A stretch of DNA of 64,000 nt, from NCBI GenBank assembly GCA_965205505.1, contig CBDBHB010000009.1:256001-320000 (forward strand). The letters run 5' to 3'. Numbering within the stretch: the first letter of the stretch is position 1; the number at the start of each line of letters is the position of its first letter. Origin of the DNA: Acidobacteriota bacterium (GTDB lineage: Bacteria > Acidobacteriota > UBA890 > WLXD01). The translations under genes were made by a program, and so were the position numbers. Below, one piece after another: positions 21,107 to 53,541 of this stretch. The notes below the pieces were generated by a model. It did no database searches and was not told where the DNA came from. It worked only from the letters and a program-made list of their open reading frames with translations.

Positions 21107-22842
<1,736 letters not shown>

Positions 22843-22846
<4 letters not shown>

Positions 22847-22960
22847 GGCGAGCCCTTGGCGCGCGGCGCTCCCTGAACGCCGAAGAAGCGGGGGCCGGAC
22901 CAATGGGCGCCGATGATACGCCGGGCGATACTGCTCAAGGAGCGATACAGCTTACCCCGA
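22843..22960 (-). pseudogene. DUF2924 C-terminal fragment
   Basis: GKLYRSLSSIARRIIGAHWSGPRFFG lies directly upstream of the recombinase. Confidence 0.8.
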
Positions 22961-33081: not shown

Positions 33082-33840
33082 TCAGTCGCGTAGCACGAAG
33101 AGATTTGCTCGGTGCCATGCGAGCCGCTCCCTGTGCTTCTGTGTCAATGGAATAGGCTGCGTCCAGCGCAGCTCGGTTCGCGCCCGCTCAGTCAATACAG
33201 GTGAGTACTCCGGCCGCCCGTCGTCGTCGAAGGTCACCAATCCCTTGTCAAAGGCCGCGTCCCAAAGCGCTGAGAGAAGTAGGCCATTGCGAACGTCCAG
33301 CCGTTCGGCATCGTCGGGGCAGTCCTTCCACGGGATGATGTGCGAGGCACGCAGCAGTTCTGGGTCCGTGATTCCGGTCAGCGGACATCGACCCTGCCAG
33401 TAGGTCATCAGCCGGTCGCGAAAGATGTCCTGGCCGATTCGCTGGACGACGAGGCGCTCCGCCTCGGTGGTTTTCGGAAGGTTGTTTGTCTTGGCGCGAA
33501 ATGCCTCGAGCGGGCCGTCGGGCAACGCCACGCCAAGGGCATAGACCTTGGGCATCACGGCGTACAGTTCCTTTAGCGTGGCGAAGACATAGCGGGCAAG
33601 ACCGGGACCGGGCATGGTGGCTCGTGGATGCTCCAGTTCCTCGACCACGCCGGCGTGGTCCAGGGCGAGGAACCAGGGACCCGAAGATCCGGCGGCACCG
33701 AGCCTGATCGTGCCTTTCGCGGTGGTGGAGCCGTAACGCGCCCAGCCCTCTTGCTGCCCCAGGGGGCGGCGATAGCCGTTCTGCCAGGCGACCTTCTCGC
33801 ACTCCTCGGCGACGACGAAGCTCTGGGGTGTCTCGATCAC
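33082..33840 (-). CDS. HNH endonuclease (HNH_2, restriction-associated)
   Basis: RIGQDIFR...CPLTG...ASHIIPW...NGLLLSALWDAAFDKGL. The GTG start overlaps the upstream TGA. Confidence 0.9.
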   Translation of the reverse strand: MIETPQSFVVAEECEKVAWQNGYRRPLGQQEGWARYGSTTAKGTIRLGAAGSSGPWFLALDHAGVVEELEHPRATMPGPGLARYVFATLKELYAVMPKVYALGVALPDGPLEAFRAKTNNLPKTTEAERLVVQRIGQDIFRDRLMTYWQGRCPLTGITDPELLRASHIIPWKDCPDDAERLDVRNGLLLSALWDAAFDKGLVTFDDDGRPEYSPVLTERARTELRWTQPIPLTQKHRERLAWHRANLFVLRD

Positions 33841-33950
33841 AGACCGAGTTGCGTGAATTGCCCACTCGTCTCCATCCGGTCCCAGGCGGCAAGGACGAGA
33901 CGGCGGGTGCGGTATTCGCCGTGGTGCCGCATTTCCTTTTCCTTGAGCAC
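33837..33950 (-). pseudogene. C-terminus of an Eco57I-like DNA methyltransferase/R-M protein
   Basis: VLKEKEMRHHGEYRTRRLVLAAWDR. Confidence 0.75.
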
Positions 33951-34149
33951 GCGAGTGAGCGACCGAAGCGCGGCGTGCGATTCGGTGTCCACGTTTCCGC
34001 AGCGGGAGGCCTGAACCGGACCCCCGAGCGCGCCGCGAATCTCGGCTGCGAGGACGATGCAGATCATCCCGTGTCATTGATGATGTCGATGCGACGGGTG
34101 TGAATCGATCACACCCCATTCTGCGGCTCAGGAGAAATCGAGTTTTCCG

Positions 34150-34539
34150 CATGTCGGTCGCCGGGGCGACGCGCTCGATTTCCTCGTCGTCCGATAGTTT
34201 CAGCGTGGCCGCGTACTGCAGCCCGCAGGGATTGGGCCAGACGAGTCGTGTTAGCGCAACAACCCGTTAGATTCGCTTGTCGGAGTCCCAGCTTCCGCCT
34301 GGCTCCGCCGCCTCGGCGATGTAGCTGCACAACTCCCAGTAGTCTCGCGTCCGCCCAAGGGTGTAGCCGTAGCCAGGTGGCTCACAGGCATCAAATACCA
34401 GTTCGGCTCGATCTTCTCCGAGCTCACAGACCGCCACCCCGTTCGGCAGCTTTATGCGTGACGTCGGAACTGGAGGTAGCGAAACGTCGATAGGCATCGG
34501 GCTTCCCGTAACCATGAGGACATCCAGCCTTCGGATCAT
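34150..34539 (-). pseudogene. Paralog of the 15732 HEPN-type gene, N-terminal part with in-frame TAA at 34267
   Basis: ACEPPGY..WDSDKRI*RVVALTRL..GLQYAA..EIERV aligns with ACDPPGY..WDPDGRLQEVVALSRL..GLRYGA..EIERV. Confidence 0.75.
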
Positions 34540-36979: not shown

Positions 36980-37698
36980 ACCGTGAAGCGCCGTGCCAGC
37001 ACGTTGGGCGCCGCTGACCGGCCAGGTGTGGGCCGTGTTGTCACCCGGAACCGACGGGGTTGGCGAGCTCGAAGTCCTTCCTGGCGCATCAGCCGAGCTA
37101 CCCGCTTGCGAGAGCAGCGGATCCCTCGTTGCCGAAGTTGCTTGTGGATGCGCGGACTTCCGTAACGGTCGCGGCTCTCTCGGAATGCAGCTCTGATCTG
37201 CACACGTAGACGGCGATCTTCTCGCGCTCTCGGGCTCGGCCCCCTTCCTCGCCACTCGTAGTAACCGCCGTGAGACACCTCGAGCATCTTGCACAACCGC
37301 CGCACCGGGAACTTGCCGGACAGTTGCTTGATGATCGGGTACTTCATCGCGGGCGTTCCGAGAAGATCGCCAACGCTTTTTTTAGAATGTCGCGCTCCTG
37401 CCGTACTCGCCGCAGGTGCCGCCGTAGCTGTTGCCCGTCCAGGTCCTGGTCGGGCATCTTCCCCGCGCCCGGAAACGCCGTGACCCCCTGCTCCTGGAGC
37501 TGTTTGCGCCACTTGGTCAACATGCCGCGGCCAACACCCAGATCCCGGGCCACCTCAGACACCGGATGGCCCAGCTGCGTCACCATCCTCACTGCCTCAA
37601 TCTTGAACTCGCGACTGTACCGCCGTCGTGACCCCATGCTTCACCTCCGAGCCCATTATCGGGCTTCCAAAGGTGTCCGGGAAATCGGGGGAGGCCCA
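36980..37698 (-). mobile_element. IS3-family element, 5' half (orfA 37344-37637 plus orfB N-terminus)
   Basis: IR TGGGCCTCCCCCGATTTCCCGGACAC; orfB ends at APNVLARRFTV. Confidence 0.88.
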
Positions 37699-38067
37699 GT
37701 GCGCCAGCAAGGGATCCTTGGGGACACCCGCGCCATTGGCGTAGCTAAGTCCGAGGTCGTACTGCGCACGGGCGTGGCCCTTCTTGGCGGCTAGTCGGTA
37801 CAAACGCACCGCCTCGGCCTCGTCCTGGAGGACGCCCTCACCATTGGCGTACATAACCCCGAGTGTGTACTGCGTAGGAGCCTGGCCCCGCTCGGCGGCC
37901 AGTCGGTACCAGCGCACCACTTCGGCTTCATCTTGGGCGACGCCTTCGCCTCTGGCGTACATGCGCCCGAGGTCGAGCCGCGCACGCGCAAGGCCCTTGT
38001 CCGCAGCTAGGCGAAACAGGCGCACCGCCTCAGCCTCATCCTTGAGGACGCCTTCACCTTTAGCGTA
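37699..38067 (-). pseudogene. Sel1-repeat protein, internal fragment
   Basis: Three repeats of the GEGV..DEAEAVR.YRLAA..G type. Confidence 0.88.
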
Positions 38068-38296
38068 GGGAATTATACCGTTGACAAACCCTGAGCGGGC
38101 TTTGCTAGCTCCCCTTCTTCTTTTTCGCCCGCTTCTCCGCTGCCAGAACCTTGCTTCCCGGAACCCGCATGAAAGCACCCAGCGCCTGTTCCGGCGATAG
38201 CGGATGCATGCTCAACCTGCCTCCTGACGCTGCGCGGTCGAACTTCTTGTCCTGACGCTTCTGCTTCTTGGGCGTGCGCTGTCTAGACGATTTCAC
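38068..38296 (-). mobile_element. Probable IS1595-family (ISNwi1-type) end with a small basic ORF (38105-38296)
   Basis: GGGAATTATACCGTTGAC (GGnnATTAT) lies exactly at the Sel1 breakpoint. No transposase remains. Confidence 0.45.
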
Positions 38297-38466
38297 GGGT
38301 CCACCTCCTGCCAGTGCGCGAGTTTCCTGCTCGGGGATGGTAGGGTCAGCGCCGCACACGCACGACCTGTCGTCCGCGAGAGCGGGAATACCGCGGGAAC
38401 CGCGATCGGTTGTGGTGTGCAAGGCCCGGCACCTATTGCCGGACTTTCCACCAGGAGGCCCCCCTG

Positions 38467-39003
38467 ATGGGACGCCGAATGATCTGCGCAGCCACTCTCG
38501 TTCTGACGCTCGCTACACCGGTTGTTAGCGCTCAAGAGGATGTGCGCGCGCTGAAAGGGACGATGGACTGGGGCAATCCTGACCGCATCGAGTCTCGACC
38601 CGATGGCCTGACTATCCTGACCTACAATCTCAGCGACGAGGCAGTCGGTCAGTTCCGTGGAAAAAAGAGTGTCTTTGCCTACATCACCTACGCGTCGATC
38701 AGCCGGCCTAGTCTTAGCAACGGGTTCGGTGTATTCGACCTCACGCCGCTTGAATTCGCTCGCTACTACTACTCGCTGGCAGTGGCAAACTTTGGCACCA
38801 GGACCGCCCGCGGAACCTTTACCTTGAAACTCTCCGGGCCTACCCGGTGGACGCGAACCTTCCCGAACACGACCGTATCGGGACGGACCTTCACGGTCCT
38901 GTACTACCAGGGAGAACCGCTGAACCGAACCGGGAACTACCTGCTGAAGGGCACGTTCAAAGGCGCAGGATCTACAAAGTCGCGATTTTGCGCTGGTTGT
39001 TAA
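38467..39003 (+). CDS. Secreted hypothetical protein
   Basis: AGGAGG RBS; signal peptide ending VVSA; beta-rich body. Confidence 0.7.
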   Translation: MGRRMICAATLVLTLATPVVSAQEDVRALKGTMDWGNPDRIESRPDGLTILTYNLSDEAVGQFRGKKSVFAYITYASISRPSLSNGFGVFDLTPLEFARYYYSLAVANFGTRTARGTFTLKLSGPTRWTRTFPNTTVSGRTFTVLYYQGEPLNRTGNYLLKGTFKGAGSTKSRFCAGC

Positions 39004-39385
39004 ACAACGGATAAAGTAACCAATGCCAAGCACAGGTCAGAAATGCACACCAATCGGGGATCTATCAGAGCGACTGTGCATGCTGCTCGCAGATTGCCAT
39101 CGTTTCTCCTTGGGTGCGCTGAGCAGCCCGCCTTGACTCAGAGCACGACACCAACTGCACGACCGGCAACAATATTGAGTCTGAAAATCGGCGTGAAGGC
39201 ACAGGCGGGTTGCCTAAGTGCGCCGAGTGTAAGCGGATTCAGGGACTGTAGTAGCAAAGACAATTTCCCAGTAGGGTCCCGTCGGCTCACCGTCGATCAT
39301 GCCCCAAATACGGCGCAGATCAGACACGGGCAAGTCGTACGCACTAGTTCGATGGCAAAGTTCGGAAAGGCGCTGGGCACAACCG

Positions 39386-40039
39386 GGATGCCGTGGACAG
39401 CGTCTGGGTGGGCGACCTGACATACCTGTGGAGGCAGGAAGGATGGCTATACCTGGCCGTGCTGATGGATCTGTGCTCGCGACGGATCATCGGCTGGGCG
39501 GTGAGCGAGACGATGACGGACGATTTGACGCTGGCGGTCCTGGATCAGGCCTTGGAGCAACGCCGTCCCGGTTCCGGAGTGCTCCATCACAGCGACCGCG
39601 GCAGCCAGTACAGCAGCGACGATTACCTAGACAAGCTGCGTGACCGTGGCTTCACCATCAGCATGAGCAGGAAAGGAGACTGCTGGGATAACGCGCCGAT
39701 GGAGAGTTTCTTCTGTACCCTGAAGTTCGAACTCGGTGGCTGCTTCAGTTCCCGGGCGGCGGCCCGAGCCGAGTTGTTCCACTACATCGAAGTGTTCTAC
39801 AACCGGGCTCGCATGCACACCTCGATCGGAGACCAGAGTCCGGCTCAGTTCGAGGCGGCAATGCGGCGGCCAGGTCAGAGCGGCCAATCAGCTGTGGAAG
39901 CTGACGCGCCCGTGGAAATCGACTCCCGATTTCCACCGTCGCTTGGACAACGCTCCGCGTTGCCAACAGCTCCCACAGCCGCTAATACGACTACGACAAT
40001 GGATCTTAACTAAGTGTCCGGGAAAGCGGGGCAAGGTCA
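39386..40039 (+). mobile_element. IS3-family element, 3' half (orfB DDE core plus IR)
   Basis: VWVGDLTY, HHSDRGSQY, CWDNAPMESFF; IR GTGTCCGGGAAAGCGGGGCAAGGTCA matches the IR at 37698. Confidence 0.9.
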
Positions 40040-40516
40040 ATCTCGCGTGCCCCGGTCGGGTCTGTGCGGATCGCGCTCGAAGCCAAGGCGGCGATGGCGA
40101 AACTCCAGTCGTCGATCCCTAGGCTCTACGACGAGCTCAACTCAAGTCACTTGACGATTCACGGTGCATCGGACAACGTGATCGCGATCGGGTACTCGCT
40201 CGTCAACGCGGCGCTTCGTTTTCTGAGCCCGCCACTCAACCGATACTCGCTCGCAACGTACCCGCGTCGGTATCGGGACATGAAGCCCGGCGAAGCAGGT
40301 CTCGTGGTCGACAAGATCCGGGACATGCCACGGCGGAACCGGCCCGGCATGGAGGGCTTTGACGCGCTTGGGATTACTGTCATCAGATTTGAGAATACCG
40401 GCGCGCCAGTCACGCTGGTGCGAGCCGCTCCCGCTCCACCTGCCAATGATCTGTTCCACTACGAGAGTATGATTCGCAGGGCCTCTAGCCTGTACCAGTC
40501 AAGATTCGTCCAATAG
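40040..40516 (+). pseudogene. PD-(D/E)XK-like endonuclease, 5'-truncated by IS3
   Basis: RIALEAK (E-x-K) followed by PRLYDELNSSH; the frame is open back to the IS end. Confidence 0.5.
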
Positions 40517-40688
40517 ACGTCGGCGGAGGGCCGCTAGCCACCACGGTTTCATCACAGCTGCGACTCTCTGAGATGAGGCCGATCGCGTTACGCCTGCTGA
40601 GATGGACGTGATTCGCGGGCCAGCAACATCAGTGAGCTGTGTGTAACCCTGATCGTCGACTCGAGGACACGCCGCCAGGAGACACCGG
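40517..40688 (+). ncRNA. Candidate RT-associated structured RNA
   Basis: Nested complementary segments and a CTGAGATG direct repeat. Folded by eye only. Confidence 0.3.
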
Positions 40689-41789
40689 ATGAGGCTTGAG
40701 CGTTTGGCAAGCCGACCCAATCTCAGGCTGGCGTGGCGTCGGATCACAACCGGGGGCAACCACCAGTACAAGCGACTCTATCGCAGTCTCTACTACGCGT
40801 ATGAGGCTGCGCTCGAAGCCAACATTCGCGATTTGCGGACGCGGATCCTGGGCGGCACCTTCTCGCCTCGTCATCCTGAACGCATCTTTGTTCCGAAGCC
40901 GTCCGGGCTCCACCGTCCTCTCGGCCTGTTGGGCATCGAAGACCAGATTGTCCTTCAAGCGTTCGCGAATCTCGCGGCGAAGAAGTTGCAGCGTCGCCGA
41001 GTACCGCTCCAGTTCGAGGTCGTCTTCAGTAACATCCTGCAGAACCAGGACAGTATTTTCTTCTTTCGTCGTTGGCAGGATACCTACGCAGCGTTCCAAC
41101 GGAGGATTCGCCAGCACTATGAAGACGGCCTGCGATGGGTCGGGGATTTCGACCTTGCCGCGTTTTACGACACCATCTCCCACGAACTACTGCTGCGGAC
41201 CATCTACCCGCAGACGCAAAACGAAGACCTGAGGTGGATGGCGGACTGCCTGCAAACGTGGAGCTCGGTTCGAGCATCCTCTAGACACGGCCACGGCCTG
41301 CCCCAAGGGCCTATCGCGTCTGACCTTCTGGCCGAGTGCTTCCTCCTGCCAATCGATGTGGCGCTCAGGGAGCAGCGAGGGTACACGCGGTACGTGGACG
41401 ACTTTCGACTGTTCGGTGACACAGAACATGAGGTTCGAGCGGACCTGATCGAACTTGAGCGCCATTCGCGTGAACGGGGGTTGATACCGCAGACCGGCAA
41501 GTTCGCCATCAAGCGGTCGCGGACCTTGCAGGACGCGATGGGAATGCTGCCCAGCATCGCGGACCCACAACATGTGGCGGGTACTGAGCCAATCGACAAA
41601 GCCCTCGCCAGGTCGTTATTCCGCACCGCGATCAGTGGCAGACCGTACAAGGTTACCGACAAGACTCGCCTGCGCTATGTCCTCTACCGCGCCGAACCGG
41701 ACAACGACCTCCTGAGGCGGGTATTGACTCTGGTTCCGCGTCACCCGGAACACGCCGACGTGTTCTTTTCGTACCTGGGCCTGACCTGA
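40689..41789 (+). pseudogene. Reverse transcriptase, UG/Abi (DRT-like) lineage, C-terminus cut by IS407
   Basis: VPKPSG..RP, EDQIV, FDLAAFYDTISH, GLPQGPIAS, RYVDDFRLF; helical C-terminal extension; AGGAG RBS. The stop codon comes from the IS end. Confidence 0.9.
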
Positions 41790-43041
41790 CCCCACGGTTA
41801 GTACCACGTCTTATCTCAGTAACTCGGTGCTGACAAGGGGTTGTTGAGGCCGGCGAAGCGGAGCGTAGCCGGCTTCAACAACAGCGCCTCCGGGGCCGGT
41901 GGTCGGTAGCCCAACGAGCTGTGCGGTCGCATGCGGTTGTACTGCTGCCTCCATCTCTCGATCAGAACCTTTGCCTCCTTGAGCGTGTAGAAGATCTCGC
42001 CGTTGAGCAGCTCGTCTCGGAGCTTGCCGTTGAAGCTCTCCACGTAGCCGTTCTCCCACGGCGAGCCCGGCTCGATGAACAGCGTGCCCACACCGAGCCT
42101 ACCGAGCCAGTCGCGAACCGCCTCGGCGGTGAACTCCGGTCCGTTATCGGACCGGATGTGCTCAGGTATGCCCCGGTGCACGAACAACCACCCGAGCCGC
42201 TCGAGCACGTCCTCACAGTTGAGCTTCCGTGCCACGTCGATCGCCAGGCTTTCTCGTGTGTACTCATCGACGATCGTCAGCAGCCTCATAGCCCGACCCT
42301 CGTGCGTCCGGTGATGAACGAAGTCATACGCCCAGACGTGATCTTTGCGCTGTGGTCGCAGCCGGATGCACGAGCCATCGCTGAGCCACAGCCGGGCTCG
42401 TTTGGGCTGCTTTGTCGGTACTTTCAGCCCCTCACGCCTCCAGATACGCTGCACTCGTTTGTGGTTCACCCACCAGCCCTCCATACGCAACAACGCCGTC
42501 ACTCGCCGATACCCGTAGCGCCCGTATTGTCGGGCTAGATCCACGATCCGCTCCGTCAACATCTGCTCATCGCCCGGTTCTCTTGGCATGTACCTGTGTG
42601 TCGTGCGTGGTTGTTTCAGTACCCGGCACGCCCGCCTCTCGGAGACGCCCAGCCGCCCCTGTACATGCGCCACCGCCTCGCGCCGTCGAGCTGGGCTCAG
42701 AAGTTTCCCTCCGCGACTTCCTTCAGGATCGACAGGTCGAGCTCTTTCTCCGCCACCAGTTTCTTGAGCCGGGCGTTTTCTTTCTCCAGCTGCTTGAGCC
42801 TTCTGGCCTGGTTGACCTTCAGCCCCCCGTACTCCCGCCGCCACCGATAGTAGGTGTGCTCGGTGATCGCTAGCTTGCGGCAGGCATCCTTGACCGTCCC
42901 GCCTTGCGCCAGCTCCACTTCAGCCTCCCGGAGCTTGCGTACGATCTGCTCGGCGCTGTGCCTCTTCGTCGGCATTCTGACCTCCCCTTTTCGACCCAGA
43001 TCGTGAGATTACCTCTGGATCCGTTTTGGGGGGTCAGGTCA
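41782..43041 (-). mobile_element. IS407-group element, complete, 1260 bp (copy 1)
   Basis: TGACCTGACCCC...GGGGTCAGGTCA; orfA 42697-42975; orfB extends to 41816. Confidence 0.95.
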
Positions 43042-44009
43042 TCCCCACGCCGAGCCTACCGAGCCAGTCGCGAACCGCCTGGGCAGTGAACTCCGGTCCG
43101 TTATCCGACCGGATGTGCTCAGGTATGCCTCGGTGCACGAACAACCACCCGAGCCGCTCTAGCACGTCCTCACAGTTGAGCTTCCGCGCCACGTCGATCG
43201 CCAGGCTTTCTCGCGTGTACTCATCGACGATCGTCAGCAGCCTCATAGCTCGACCGTCGTGCCTCCGGTGGTGGACGAAGTCATACGCCCAGACGTGATC
43301 TTTGCGCTGTGATCGCAGGCGGATGCACGAGCCATCGTTGAGCCATAGCCGGGCTCGTTTGGGCTGCTTTCTCGGTACCTTCAGCCCTTCGCGCCGCCAG
43401 ATACGCTGCACTCGTTTGTGGTTCACATACCAGCCCTCCATGCGCAGCAACGCTGTTACCCTCCGATACCCGTAGCGCCCGTACTGCCGGGCTAGATCCA
43501 CGATCCGCTCCGTCAGCATCTGCTCCTGTTGCGGCCCTCTTGGCACGCACCTCTGCCTCGTGCGTGGTTGTTTCAGTACCCGACATGCCCGCCTCTCCGA
43601 TACGCTCAGCTGCCCCCGCACGTGCGCCACCGCCTCGCGCCGGCGCGCCGGGCTCAGAAGTTTCCCGACGACACCTCTTTGAGGATGGCGTTGTCGAGCA
43701 TCGTCTCCGCCAGCAGCTTCTTGAGCCGCCCGTTCTCGCGCTCCAGCTCCTTGAGTCGCCGTGCCTGATCCACCCTCAGCCCGCCGTATTCCTTACGCCA
43801 CCGGTAGTACGTGTTCTCGCTGATGCCCAGCTTCCGGCACGCCTGTGGCCTCTTGGCTCCTTGCGCCAGCTCGATCTCTGCCTCCCTGAGCTTGGCGATG
43901 ATCTGCTCTACCGTGTATCGCTTCCGGGCCATTTGTCCCCCTTCCCGAGCCTTCCTGAGTGCCTCAATTCCTAACTCTCAATCTGGCCCGATTATTGGGG
44001 GGCAGGTCA
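43042..44009 (-). mobile_element. IS407-group element truncated by the adjacent IS
   Basis: orfA 43654-43932; orfB ends at LGRLGVG; end GGGGCAGGTCA. Confidence 0.9.
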
Positions 44010-44099
44010 AACTCGATGATGCACCCGCGCGCGGGATCGGGAGCCGGAGCGCCAGCTCGAGGATCTGGTGCAAAGCTCCGGCAGCGGCGCTCGAGGGGC

Positions 44100-44285
44100 G
44101 GTCAGCGGATCGGCCACGGTGGTGGAGCCAGGCCTCGCGCGCCCGGACCTGCTCGAGCGTGAGGCGATCGCCAGCGTGCTTGCGCTCGTGGCAGTCCCGG
44201 CAGATCGGCTGGATGTTGTTGCGGTCCCAGAAGCGCTCCGGAGACAGGTGCACAGGCTCGATGTGGTCGATGTGCTCGGCGGCCG
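44100..44285 (-). pseudogene. Phage-type HNH endonuclease fragment
   Basis: HIDHIEP...FWDRNNIQPICRDCHERKH. Confidence 0.8.
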
Positions 44286-44289
44286 ACTG

Positions 44290-44482
44290 TGAAGCCCGCT
44301 TCGCCGCAGGCCTTGGACTGGACATGTGCCGGCAAACGAGCGTCACTGTGGGTGCCTTCGGCGTACCCCTCCGTTACGCATAGGACATCGCAATCGGGCT
44401 CAGCCAAGGCGGCACTGACACGGTCGCCACGCGGAGTCCGCAGTTTCGCCCATTCGGTATTCCAGGTGCCTATGCGGGGCAT
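44290..44482 (-). pseudogene. Endonuclease/exonuclease/phosphatase N-terminal fragment
   Basis: MPRIGTWNTEWA...DCDVLCVTE. Confidence 0.75.
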
Positions 44483-44567
44483 GGTTTGACTGTACCCTGC
44501 CCGCACCTCCAACCGTGCGCACAAGTTTCTCGCGGCGTGCGGGGCGCGTGTAGGGCACGCAACGGCT

Positions 44568-44882: not shown

Positions 44883-44924
44883 CAGACCACCGATCGCGCA
44901 CGCTGCACGATGTGGGGCCCGCGC

Positions 44925-45346
44925 CCGAGTTCATCGTCGGCCGGCTCAAGTCCTGGTTCGAAGCGGGGGTGCCCAATGACTCCATCTGCCTAGCTACACG
45001 GACTAACTCGCAGCTCAAGGCTCGCTATAAGGCCATCCTGGCCGCCGCGGAGATCTCCGCCGTCTACGTCGAGCGTACCCCCGCCTCCGAAAGAGGTCCC
45101 GGCGTTCGCCTTGCCAACATGCACCGAATGAAGGGCCTGGAGTTCTCTCGCGTTCTGCTCGCCGGCGTTCAGGACGGGACGATGCCACTCTCGAGCGAAC
45201 ATACGGAGGCCGCTGACGTAGCCGGCCGCGAACACTGGGAGCTAAAAGAGTGGTGCCTGTTCTATGTGGCGCAGAGCCGGGCGAGGGACGGGCTGACGAT
45301 AACGGGGTTCGGGGCCCCAAGTGAACTCGTCGAGCCACCGTCGTGA
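44925..45346 (+). pseudogene. UvrD-like helicase C-terminal fragment (copy A)
   Basis: MHRMKGLEF...LFYVAQSRARD. Confidence 0.88.
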
Positions 45347-45794: not shown

Positions 45795-48215
45795 ATGGCC
45801 CGCCTGAAGAACGCCGACGTGCAGCCCGTGTACGACGCTGCAGACAAGTTCGTCGAGGTAGCCCTACGCGCTGCCGAATCGCTCTTCACTCCCGGGTCCT
45901 CTATTTGGACGTCCGAGAACCTAGACGACCTTCACTCTCGATTTGTTGAGAACCCGGATGAATCGTCCGACTCCTTCGACGCCAAGCTCGAGCGCCAGCT
46001 CGGGGGGGCACCCGATGCAACGACTCAGCTTGCTGCGGAGCTGATCTATGTGCATCTCCTCATTGCCCGCTCGATGAGCGGCGTTAAAAAGAGGGCACTG
46101 CTCAGTAAGGTGATTTCTTGGATGGCATCGCCCGTCGAGATCCCGGACGAGCTCGACGCTGTTCTGAATACGGGCATCGCCAGCACGGGCATGGCGTTCC
46201 TGACGTACCGGCCTTTCCAGCTTTGGATGCTGATCGACTTCATGCGTCGATGGAAAGAGATGCCCGCAGACGAGCGGGAGGACCGCCTCACCGACCCATG
46301 GAAGTTCAAGGAGACAGTCGCAGCGTCTGCGCAGAAGGCCTCGTCGCCTCAGGAGGAGGCCTTGATGCACCTCGTGTTCCCGGACACGTTCGAGCCGCTC
46401 ATCCTGCGCAGCGCCAAGAAGCGCATCGCGGAGCACTTCGCGGAGCATGTGCACACTCCAACGCCGGACGTAGACCGGCAGCTCCTTGAGATCCGCGAGG
46501 CGCTTACCCAGGAGTACGGTGCGGGATTCATGTTTTATGACCCGCCGATTGCCGTGCAGTGGCAAAAGGACTCCAGCCATTGGGGTCAGTTTGTGCACTG
46601 GGCACAGCGTTTCTACGACGTCGAGGCTCTCGAGAAGGAAGAGCGTGCCTACAAGTTCGATTGTGCGAAGCGACTTCGCGACGCGATCGGTGCAGTGCGT
46701 GAAGATCGGGACGACTGGCCCAAGACGATGCGCTGGGCGTTCGGCGGCAAGAACAACATCACCAACCACCACAGTCACGGGCCATTCCTCGACTGGTGCT
46801 CGGACGAGACGGAGACGGCGCTTGCCGCGTTGCTGTCGCTGTTCGCCGAGGAGCGGCCGCTGTCGGAGCGTATCCGAGCGTTCAGTCGGGCCTTTCCGCG
46901 TGAGGTGCTCTCGGGCCGCGGTGTCCGGTTGAACCTCATCTCTTTCATGCTGATGGGATTCGACCCGGTCGAGTATCCGCCCTACCAGTACACTCCGTAC
47001 AACAAGGTGATCGGCCTCGTCGGATTCCAGCGCCCAGGGCCCGCTAATGCCGAGGAGGTTGTGTACACCTGGGCTCTGCAATTCCTCGACGAGTTCATCG
47101 ATCAGGCCGCCAGCCGCGGATTGGAACTTCGCGATCGACTCGATGCCCAGTCGATGGTCTGGGTATTGATGACCAAGTACCGGCTCAAAGAGCTCGATCC
47201 GGCGGCGCAAGCGGCATATCTGGAGTTTCTCGGCGAGGAAGCGCCCACCTCCCCGACTGAGCCGCTCGTTGTTAAGGAGGAGCCTGATACCGACGGCGCG
47301 GAGGTTGAGACGCTGGCCGACGTCGCCGCCGAGCTCCTCATCGCCCCAACCTACCTCCGGGATATGGTGCGACTGCTCGAGGCCAAGCGGCAGATCATTT
47401 TCCACGGCCCGCCCGGCACCGGGAAGACATTCGTTGCCCTCCGGCTTGCCGAGTATCTCGCCGGCTCTTCGGACGCCGCCGACCTTGTTCAGTTCCATCC
47501 CTCCTATGCCTACGAGGACTTTGTCGAGGGCTACCGACCTCACCGCTACGAGACTGGACTAGGCTTTCGGCTGCAGGACGGTCCGCTCAAGAGGCTCGCG
47601 AAGAAGGCCGGCTCCGCGCCTGACGTGCGACACGTGCTTGTGATCGACGAGATCAACCGCGGCAACATCGCCAAGGTCTTCGGAGAACTCTATTTCCTGC
47701 TGGAGTACCGCAAGCACGAAATCCAGTTGCAGTATTCCCAGGAGCCGTTCGCGATGCCGGCGAACCTGCTCGTGATCGGCACGATGAACACAGCCGACCG
47801 GTCGATCGCTCTAGTGGACCTGGCGCTCCGGCGCCGATTCCACTTCTATCCGTTCTTCCCACACCAACCGCCGGTGGAGGGTCTTCTATCCCGCTGGCTG
47901 GAGCGAAATAGGCCGAAGATGGCGTGGGTCGCCCCGGTGCTCGATCGGCTCAACAAACTGCTGGACGACCGCGACGTGGCAGTCGGACCCAGCCACTTCA
48001 TGCGCAAGGATCTCGATGACGACTGGGTTCGTCTGATCTGGGAGCACTCGATCCTCCCCTACGTAGCCGAGCAGTTGCACGGGGAGCGGGAACGCCTGGC
48101 CGATTTTGCCCTCGACGTGCTTCGCGGCAACGAGTCAGTTTCGGCGGGAGAAGTAGAAGCTGCCGATACCGCGGGGAGTGAGGAGGCCGATGGCGAGCAC
48201 GCTGAGGCTGACTGA
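45795..48215 (+). CDS. mcrB: McrB-family AAA+ GTPase with a long N-terminal region
   Basis: GPPGTGKT, QFHPSYAYEDFVEG, IDEINRGN, MNTAD, ALRRRF. Confidence 0.95.
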   Translation: MARLKNADVQPVYDAADKFVEVALRAAESLFTPGSSIWTSENLDDLHSRFVENPDESSDSFDAKLERQLGGAPDATTQLAAELIYVHLLIARSMSGVKKRALLSKVISWMASPVEIPDELDAVLNTGIASTGMAFLTYRPFQLWMLIDFMRRWKEMPADEREDRLTDPWKFKETVAASAQKASSPQEEALMHLVFPDTFEPLILRSAKKRIAEHFAEHVHTPTPDVDRQLLEIREALTQEYGAGFMFYDPPIAVQWQKDSSHWGQFVHWAQRFYDVEALEKEERAYKFDCAKRLRDAIGAVREDRDDWPKTMRWAFGGKNNITNHHSHGPFLDWCSDETETALAALLSLFAEERPLSERIRAFSRAFPREVLSGRGVRLNLISFMLMGFDPVEYPPYQYTPYNKVIGLVGFQRPGPANAEEVVYTWALQFLDEFIDQAASRGLELRDRLDAQSMVWVLMTKYRLKELDPAAQAAYLEFLGEEAPTSPTEPLVVKEEPDTDGAEVETLADVAAELLIAPTYLRDMVRLLEAKRQIIFHGPPGTGKTFVALRLAEYLAGSSDAADLVQFHPSYAYEDFVEGYRPHRYETGLGFRLQDGPLKRLAKKAGSAPDVRHVLVIDEINRGNIAKVFGELYFLLEYRKHEIQLQYSQEPFAMPANLLVIGTMNTADRSIALVDLALRRRFHFYPFFPHQPPVEGLLSRWLERNRPKMAWVAPVLDRLNKLLDDRDVAVGPSHFMRKDLDDDWVRLIWEHSILPYVAEQLHGERERLADFALDVLRGNESVSAGEVEAADTAGSEEADGEHAEAD

Positions 48216-49410
48216 ATATCAGCGTTCTCCGGCAGTTCGCCTCGAGCCGGAGCTACGCGACGCCCTGGCCGGCGCGATTCCGGGCATCACCGTGACGCCC
48301 GTCGCCGGAGAGCGGGATGCCTATGACCTGACTCCGTCCTCCTGGATTGGCGTGGTCGCGCTGCCGGGACTGATCGTCGAGGTCCAGCCGAAGATCCCTG
48401 TGGATCGTCTGTTGTTTCTCCTCTCGTACTCGTTGCACAAGCGCGGCTGGCAAATCCAGGACGCGGCGCTCGACCCGAGCAAGGGGCTTCTCGAGGCGTT
48501 CGTGCCGATCTTCTGCGAGGTGGTCCGGCGGGGAATTCACCCAGACCTTCTTCAGGGCTACCGAACCGAGGAAGACGCTCTGCAGACGGTGCGCGGCCGC
48601 ATCCGGTTCGATGACCAGATCCGCGACCGGTTCGGCATCTTCCCGCCGATCGAAGTGCGTTACGACGAGTTCACGGTGGATACCAACATGAACCGCCTTA
48701 TCAAAGCTGCAGTGCATCGTCTGGGGCGTCTGACGGTGCGATCCGCGCAAGCGCGGTCGGAGCTCAGGCGGCTCGCTGCGCGTTTCCGGCCGGTGACGCT
48801 GGCGCCGTTCGAGGCAAGGAAGTTGCCGGAATTTTCCTACGATCGGCTCACGGACCGTTACCGGCCCGCTTTGGAATTGGCCTCGTTGGTGCTTCGGGCG
48901 ACCTCGGTAGAGTTGCGGGCCGGAGCTCTCGAGGCACCGTCGCTGCTTGTAGACATGAACCAAGTGTTCGAGGACTTCGTGGTTACGGCCCTACGTGAGG
49001 AGCTCCGCCTCGGCGAGCCAGGGTTTCCCCAGAACTGCCATGGCCATCGGATGAGACTCGACACCGGGGGACGCGTGAAGCTCGAGCCGGATCTGTCGTG
49101 GTGGGAGGCCGGTCGGTGCGTCTTCGTCGGAGATGCCAAGTACAAACGCCTCGAGACAAAGGGCTTCAAGAACGGTGATTTGTACCAGATGCTCGCCTAT
49201 TGTACGGCGGCCGATCTGCCCGGCGGCCTGCTTGTCTACGCCGCCGGCGAAGGCGATGTCGGGAACTACGAGATCGTCTATGCAGACAAGACTATCGAGG
49301 TCGTGCATCTGAACTTGGATGGCACACCTGAGACCGTGCTCAGAGAGATCGCTGCGCTTGCGGAGCGGGTGCGACGGTGGCGACAAAGTTCGATTCGATC
49401 CGCCGCCTAG
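48190..49410 (+). CDS. mcrC: McrC-family nuclease subunit
   Basis: DMNQVFEDFV, EPD..DAKYK, DLYQMLAY; overlaps mcrB; GGAGG RBS. Confidence 0.95.
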   Translation: MASTLRLTEYQRSPAVRLEPELRDALAGAIPGITVTPVAGERDAYDLTPSSWIGVVALPGLIVEVQPKIPVDRLLFLLSYSLHKRGWQIQDAALDPSKGLLEAFVPIFCEVVRRGIHPDLLQGYRTEEDALQTVRGRIRFDDQIRDRFGIFPPIEVRYDEFTVDTNMNRLIKAAVHRLGRLTVRSAQARSELRRLAARFRPVTLAPFEARKLPEFSYDRLTDRYRPALELASLVLRATSVELRAGALEAPSLLVDMNQVFEDFVVTALREELRLGEPGFPQNCHGHRMRLDTGGRVKLEPDLSWWEAGRCVFVGDAKYKRLETKGFKNGDLYQMLAYCTAADLPGGLLVYAAGEGDVGNYEIVYADKTIEVVHLNLDGTPETVLREIAALAERVRRWRQSSIRSAA

Positions 49411-52667: not shown

Positions 52668-53420
52668 TCACGACCGTGGCTCCGCTAATCGGCTGGGAGA
52701 CCCGAACCCCGTGACCGCCAGCCCGTCCCTCGCCCGCCTCTGCGCCACATAGAACAGGCACCTCTCTTTTAGCTCCCAGTCTTCGCGGCCGGCTACGTCA
52801 GCGGCCTCCGTATGTTCGCTCGAGAGTGGCATCAACCCGTCCTGAACGCCGGCCAGCAGAACGCGAGAGAACTCCATGCCCTTCATGCGGTGCATGGTGG
52901 CGAGGCGAACGCCCGGGCCTCTTTCGGAAGTCGGCGTACGCTCGACGTAGACGGTGTGAATGTCTGCGGCGGACAGGATGGTTTCGTACCGATCCTTGAG
53001 CTGCGAGTTAGTCCGTGTAGCCAGGCAGATGGAGTCATTGGGCACCCCCTCTTTGAACCAGGACTTGAGCCGGCCAACGATGAACTCGGCCTCCTCGGTC
53101 TCGCGCTCGAAGTGACGAAACTGCGGCTCCGGGCCGTAGCGCATAGAGAAGTCGTACTTGAGAGTGTCGGTGCCGAGATCGAGGTCGTCGACTTCATGGC
53201 CTTCTAGGACTCGTTCGGCGGAGCGGCGGATTTCGGCGGTCGTGCGGTAGTTGAGCTGGAGGCGGCGGATGCGGCGGCCGACTTCAATGCCGCAGTGACT
53301 GAGGCTGGTGGGGAAACCGTAGATTCGCTGATGGGCGTCGCCGACCAGGAAGAGGCTGTTGTGGCTGTCCGGAGCGATGGCAGCGAGGAGCTTGAGAGCG
53401 TTAGGGGCGTCCGTCTTGGA
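52668..53420 (-). pseudogene. UvrD-like helicase C-terminal fragment (copy B)
   Basis: LVGDAHQRIY, LNYRTT, TMHRMKGMEF, YVAQRRARD. Confidence 0.9.
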
Positions 53421-53541
53421 CCTCGTCTGCAAGGACGGCGCGGTAGGGCAACCTTGTTGAATATCTCGACATCATTCGCGAGGCCACGCATCGCTGCCTC
53501 TGATGCCCCATCTTCCGGTCGCTAGCACAGGGAGCCGACCT

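Follow-up and report, generated by a model that had tools for sequence, protein, structure and literature searches.

Truncated UG19-large reverse transcriptase gene beside half of a likely type II endonuclease gene, between IS3-family elements in an Acidobacteriota genome

A reverse transcriptase (RT) gene that lies 172 nt downstream of a PD-(D/E)XK-like nuclease ORF, on the same strand, raises the question of whether the two genes form one defence system, as was proposed in a preliminary description of this DNA, where nuclease, ncRNA and RT were read together as an uncharacterised DRT subtype. We examined the locus in a 64,000-nucleotide stretch of an Acidobacteriota genome (the window) and conclude that positions 40040-41781 are very probably an isolated remnant of a defence island. 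In it, a UG19-large RT gene is represented by its 5′ half and a likely type II endonuclease gene by its 3′ half; most likely the two are unrelated, and each is likely inactive. The features concerned are as follows (window positions).

36980..37699, - strand: 5′ half of the left IS3 element, inverted and 1.7 kb from the 3′ half; the halves are contiguous in other genome copies.
39386..40039, + strand: 3′ half of the left IS3-family element (rve integrase; Pfam rve), with 99% matches to other copies and eight full copies in the genome.
40040..40516, + strand: putative type II restriction endonuclease, C-terminal ~158 residues of ~281 aa, assigned on a 56% match to P0226 residues 123-278, the family fold and the family context of methyltransferase (MTase) and Vsr.
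40517..40688, no strand: 172-nt spacer with no sign of a conserved ncRNA, by fold z-score, homolog comparison and the lack of an Rfam match.
40689..41781, + strand: UG19-large RT, residues 1-364 of 698 aa, comprising the whole RT domain, the linker and the first helical repeats, assigned on PADLOC RT_UG19, the match to the allele P0202 and the model of that intact allele.
41782..43041, - strand: right IS3-family element, complete, 1260 bp (Pfam rve/HTH_21), with 18 full copies in the genome.
43042..44010, - strand: second, different IS3-family element, ~85% to the first and cut by the 1260-bp IS; its ORF 43034-43630 breaks at the junction.
45795..49410, + strand: McrB-like AAA+ ATPase and McrC (Pfam AAA_5 and McrBC), island context only.

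The RT ORF (40689-41789, + strand) encodes 366 aa and matches Pfam RVT_1 at 52 bits, over the cut-off, with PQG at residues 205-207 and YVDD at residues 235-238, followed by helices; the RT core is complete, as the preliminary description had stated. Its best PADLOC model is RT_UG19 (PDLC03756) at 420.8 bits, 258 bits ahead of the runner-up (162.7 bits), and the intact allele scores 471.7 bits on the same model, covering positions 3-558 of 562. By these HMM scores, and not by a tree, the RT is of UG/Abi class 1, UG19-large, and not a retron, intron or DGR RT; judged on its sequence, it is a truncated new member of an already catalogued group. A group II intron RT/maturase was rejected on a TIGR04416 score of 89 bits against a cut-off of 300, on YVDD in place of YADD and on the lack of an Rfam intron, and a DGR was rejected because blastn (E ≤ 1e-8) matched the segment between the IS ends nowhere else in the genome, which leaves no TR/VR pair. 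An Rfam search over 38000-44500 returned no intron, retron or other RNA, with a single chance-level match (E 0.41), and all seven NCBIfam matches of the RT fell far under their family cut-offs. The UG/Abi assignment and the exclusion of retrons, group II introns and DGRs thus agree with what had been said before, but the notion of an unplaced DRT subtype falls away, as the RT fits a group catalogued in 2022 (PMC9226505).

In the passages of that survey covered here (Mestre et al. 2022, PMC9226505), UG19-large is an RT with a fused domain of unknown type that has very distant HEPN homology, and a defence role is predicted from individual loci. The at least 16 UG19 tree labels taken from part of its supplement have no accession in common with the ten RT homologs that we looked up. 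The literature on UG19 that we found, as far as the portions covered go, consists of this survey and a classifier paper (PMC8934634), and the passages covered of a paper on UG5 (PMC13436386) do not mention it; we found no bench test of UG19, although most subscription papers lay outside the scope of the search, so one may exist. With an intact homolog as query, 725 RT relatives were recovered among 8000 candidates, and the best 120 of them are nearly all ~699 aa long. No RT match was found on plasmids at E ≤ 1e-30, and the RT was present in none of ten other genomes of family-level relatives and in 5 of 400 other genomes of the phylum.

Two intact alleles of 698 aa show what the window copy has lost. 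P0202 is 99.5% identical to the window RT across 364 residues and P0225 differs from it at 1 of 364, so that the window RT carries only one or two differences per 364 residues from either allele. Its gene is cut at 41781, and residues 365-366 and the stop codon (41787-41789) are supplied by the right IS. We made a structure model of P0202 (pLDDT 86.8, pTM 0.89), in which the RT domain reaches to ~287 and is followed by a low-confidence linker (288-299), helical repeats (304-527, pLDDT mostly ~90) and a helical domain (540-696). Only residues 304-364 of the repeats survive in the window copy, which bears out the earlier remark that a helical C-terminal extension begins there; the missing 334 residues comprise most of the helical repeats and the fused C-terminal domain, HEPN-like with an RxxxxxxH motif, which is the likely effector. 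The tail had been reported as lost from the window, and by tblastn and with an HMM of 112 tails we did not find it in the whole 5.98-Mb assembly either, which is 96% complete in nine contigs, so that the missing tail could be unassembled. The RT sequence does not resume to the right of any other IS copy in the genome.

The window RT is probably non-functional, since most of its repeats and its last domain are gone, and UG15 (PMC9226505, in the part covered) and AbiK (bioRxiv 10.64898/2026.10.21.760695, likewise in part) both lose defence when small pieces of the C-terminus are deleted. It is very unlikely that the 366-aa protein retains polymerase activity and some function, or that it resembles UG19-small with a HEPN partner in trans. 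Its catalytic motifs and start codon are intact and it is scarcely diverged from the intact alleles, but a recent break would leave just as few differences, the protein ends ~60 residues into a helical region of ~225 residues and the genome contains no homolog of the tail. UG19-large homologs are often broken or in pieces, namely at 5 of 11 GTDB loci (L003, L005, L008, L009 and L011) and, counting this one, in three of six genomes of the phylum (also G374 and G366), some of which may be assembly errors. In addition, a weak second RT-like stretch occurs in this genome (G000:C8:538197-538574; 28% to two homologs, E ~1e-4 to 1e-5).

The description of this copy as cut by IS3 elements on both sides held: the left IS3 ends at 40039, cutting the nuclease gene, and the complete 1260-bp IS3 starts at 41782. 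A 4-bp target-site duplication is present at 7 of the 18 full copies of the 1260-bp IS, but not at the 41782 site, and the far end of this copy sits inside the second, cut IS3; taken together, we infer that this fits an adjacent deletion. A short-read contig from run X1, which may be the source sample, covers 40013-41806 and both IS junctions with zero differences, and the truncation is therefore probably not an assembly error. A reading in which both truncations are artefacts of collapsed IS repeats and the cell holds an intact gene could draw on the very many near-identical IS copies, the lack of target-site duplications and the existence of intact alleles at 99.5% identity; it is nevertheless most unlikely, given the X1 contig, a host contig of 3.17 Mb and a tail that is nowhere in the assembly. 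Run X4 has a 7771-base contig that matches the window as far as 41781 and then continues into different, non-IS sequence, and a second contig that extends 1032 bases upstream of 40040. Since non-IS sequence follows at both junctions in these contigs, there is an allele that lacks both IS elements.

Within 36980-39385, the left IS3 is itself interrupted in the integrase gene, its halves being separated by a truncated Sel1-repeat gene and a 1-kb duplicated stretch, and contigs from three runs likewise begin at 39386. The duplicated stretch (38067-39097) occurs again at C9:340628-341656 (98%) and at C9:2601987 (67%), and within it lies a 178-aa signal-peptide-like ORF (38467-39003) with no match in Pfam, NCBIfam or PADLOC.

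The nuclease-like neighbour that had been described upstream of the RT is indeed there, but it is only the C-terminal fragment of a gene and not a complete ORF. The piece (40040-40516) keeps an E-A-K motif, but ~122 residues are missing from its N-terminus, an invariant Asp among them; in P0226 numbering D81, E136 and K138 are invariant in 120 of 120 homologs, so that the window piece retains E136-x-K138 without Asp81. It departs from the family at 6 of 47 conserved columns (the median of 80 rows is 1), and with its first half missing it is probably non-functional. Its relatives comprised 101 proteins of 82-263 aa and 414 of at least 264 aa, and the best 120 of the long ones have a median length of 283 aa. 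No near-identical full-length nuclease was found (the best was at 56%), nor was the N-terminal half found elsewhere in the genome. The fragment had no match in the PDB, Pfam, NCBIfam or PADLOC, and a PADLOC run thus called the RT but not its neighbour; full-length family members likewise matched no Pfam or PADLOC model.

The predicted structure of a 259-aa member (pLDDT 93) resembles NucC, Cdn1, BbvCI, EcoRI, BstEII and NgoMIV with middling Z values of 6.4-7.2; the best (7.2) is to NucC, many restriction enzymes score 5.3-6.6, none reaches 8 and the best Foldseek E value is 0.019. To this we add the gene neighbourhoods at the best 80 of 433 confirmed metagenome loci, of which 13 hold less than 600 nt downstream. 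Two neighbours recur, a C5 DNA methyltransferase (PF00145 in all eight sampled) and Vsr (confirmed in all four sampled). With profiles built from the nuclease loci, the MTase was found in 66 of 80, Vsr in 71 and either one in 77, the three loci with neither being contigs of 1.1-2.0 kb, and the MTase was never missing where the nuclease has at least 1.5 kb of sequence on each side (34 of 34). The partner MTase matches the PADLOC model PDLC03324 MTase_II at 521 bits. These recurrent neighbours and the predicted fold suggest that the family most likely provides the predicted nuclease of type II restriction-modification (R-M) units made up of C5 methyltransferase, Vsr and endonuclease. Compared with such units, the copy here is half a nuclease gene with no MTase, and neither a cognate MTase nor a Vsr was found in this genome. 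The nuclease was present in 6 of 400 other genomes of the phylum. The family numbers more than 500 proteins of ~281 aa (loci L012-L091 and L099-L102), and the locus thereby exposes more than 500 putative restriction endonucleases for which neither Pfam nor PADLOC has a model. One homolog, P0260 (578 aa), carries a 290-residue N-terminal extension without a Pfam match.

We then compared the neighbourhoods of the two families, on which the proposed link between RT and nuclease depends. An RT lay beside the nuclease at none of the 80 nuclease loci (67 of which hold at least 600 nt downstream and 52 at least 1500) and at none of six further genome loci, and conversely none of 17 RT loci from 16 genomes had the nuclease beside the RT, three of these having less than 900 nt upstream. 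None of the 400 genomes of the phylum contained both, five having the RT and six the nuclease, although both families are so rare there that the non-overlap shows only that linkage is not obligate. No RT fusion occurred among 120 longer nuclease homologs. The neighbours of the RT vary instead, and include HsdS of type I systems (L001 and L108), a type IIG enzyme (L109), GmrSD (L009), Lon_C (L002), NYN (L003), a type ISP enzyme (L110) and TIR (L106). On these counts, which answer the refutation criterion set in the preliminary description itself, the linkage was rejected, and nuclease and RT are most likely unrelated neighbours, the debris of two separate defence systems.

There is one counter-case, at L008:5713-6624, where the reading frame of a different PD-(D/E)XK fragment (PDDEXK_11) runs on into part of a broken RT (residues 246-450, then a stop); this fusion is likely a deletion scar. 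For two contigs with an apparently intact RT, the nuclease calls are only 135 and 70 aa long, the pairing on these sister contigs being deduced from matching sizes (19882 and 8927) and not from DNA. The 135-aa form would owe its start to a 2-base insertion at 40110, seen in run X4.

The third proposed component, an ncRNA, found no support in the spacer. Its folding is no better than that of 200 shuffled sequences (z +1.08 and +1.04), it resembles none of 13 regions upstream of homologs and, at several RT homologs, the upstream gene ends within 40 nt of the RT start. With no shared flank, z values near +1 and no Rfam match, the ncRNA-dependent systems DRT2, DRT3 and DRT9 were rejected. As weak evidence against an integron cassette, a crude attC pattern, unvalidated on known sites, had no match in 40001-41800 or in 11 homolog flanks of 200 nt.

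The closest precedent for a nuclease partner is DRT8 (UG7), in which a class 1 RT also adjoins a PD-(D/E)XK-like gene; in the part of the survey covered, 150 of 385 UG7 members have such a partner (PMC9226505). The window RT scores 106 bits on Drt8 against 421 on UG19 and the nuclease recurs at 0 of 17 and 0 of 80 loci, on which DRT8 was rejected. That nuclease, ncRNA and RT nevertheless make up a real, undescribed DRT subtype comparable to UG7 gains something from this precedent, from the shared orientation over 172 nt and from the X4 contigs, by which the adjacency probably predates both IS insertions. We consider it extremely unlikely, because the pair recurs at no locus surveyed and in no fusion, the nuclease family has MTase and Vsr partners of its own, the RT is far closer to UG19 than to Drt8, the spacer is unstructured, unconserved and shorter than 40 nt in several homologs, and the nuclease looks broken where the RT is intact. 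The proposal of a three-part defence system was thus not borne out. According to the reading that we prefer, of two unrelated and stranded gene halves, the RT gene would first have come to lie downstream of an R-M gene, just as its relatives follow R-M genes of many kinds; that unit would then have decayed, and IS3 insertions with adjacent deletions would have removed the start of the nuclease gene, probably its methyltransferase, and the RT tail. The locus itself, a broken copy with a chance neighbour, matters little and is useful mainly as a pointer to UG19.

An intact allele has the same build as UG19-large, i.e. RT, helical repeats and a fused C-terminal domain, and occurs near defence genes; the window copy differs in lacking the last 334 residues, and an invariant R-X6-H motif was observed in the homologs analysed here. 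In the P0202 model, the highest structural Z values of the RT core on its own come from group II intron RTs (up to 22.0, ~260 residues), whereas alignments over 370-432 residues are obtained only with AbiK, DRT4, DRT6, AbiA and Abi-P2 (Z 14.3-18.0), the repeats aligning with those of AbiK, DRT4, DRT6 and AbiA. DRT4 (UG15), DRT6 (UG12), AbiK and Abi-P2 share the class 1 RT and helical repeats with it, but offer no aligned counterpart to residues ~540-698, and the Drt4 score is 34 bits against a cut-off of 450. AbiA of Lactococcus lactis (PDB 8oz7) has the same order of RT, helical domain and C-terminal domain, with a flexible linker after the RT, and aligns at Z 18.0 (rmsd 4.3, 381 residues), but at 10% identity; the window copy of 366 aa scores 14.8 bits on TIGR04499 against a cut-off of 250, AbiA is absent among the best 25 PADLOC matches of the intact allele, and the structural alignment ends at residue 526, short of the candidate HEPN-like domain.

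Two motifs stand out in 115 close homologs (63-73% identical) and four locus translations. R654 and H661 are invariant in all 115 aligned close homologs, most commonly as RNHLPVSH, which is near-identical to the AbiA HEPN motif RNSNPVSH (PMC11077055, in the part covered), and Ser289 is invariant among the close homologs in a flexible linker that contains no Tyr, whereas AbiA primes on Tyr298 in the matching linker, as the same part of that paper describes. Conserved tyrosines lie elsewhere, at positions 27, 31, 35 and 38. One distant homolog (35%) retains the R and the H, while its Ser289 context is not clearly aligned. The last domain matched HEPN/RNase LS clusters in the Atlas at 0.80-0.81, which we take as a lead only, and gave no fold match on its own; judged on its sequence features, it is a candidate HEPN-like domain.

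By analogy with class 1 enzymes, in the parts covered of PMC9226505, PMC11077055 and bioRxiv 10.64898/2026.10.21.760695, the intact 698-aa allele may, by a somewhat better than even judgement, be a one-gene system of UG/Abi class 1 on the pattern of AbiA/DRT4, combining protein-primed DNA synthesis with a HEPN-like effector. In such a system, ssDNA would be synthesised by the RT domain without a template and from a protein primer, and recognition of a phage protein would fall to the helical repeats. Dimerisation would be the task of the HEPN-like domain, which would likely also cleave RNA to arrest the infected cell. Doubt arises from AbiA, for which the covered part of PMC11077055 saw no need for the R-X-H motif in defence tests, and from the RT core, which is nearest to templated enzymes of the group II intron type, so that template-free synthesis is not assured. 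A more specific version, which we regard as rather unlikely, is that intact UG19-large is an AbiA-like RT-repeat-HEPN protein that primes on Ser289 and whose R-X6-H motif is that of a real RNase, unlike AbiA, switched on by its own DNA product; if true, such a DRT type would have its effector covalently linked to a group-II-like RT core. The 698-aa alleles at 99.5% identity offer clear residues to mutate, namely YVDD, R654/H661 and S289.

The surroundings are those of a restriction-rich island, as the preliminary description had recognised, with the McrB/McrC genes (45795-49410) and, by Pfam, HNH ORFs at 33082-34152 and 43978-44346. The McrB (806 aa, with a long N-terminal region without a Pfam match) and McrC pair looks intact. 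Two separate UvrD C-terminal fragments (44912-45346 and 52668-53432) are further signs of a decaying island, and the window also holds a large serine recombinase gene (21107-22903) and several other IS types.
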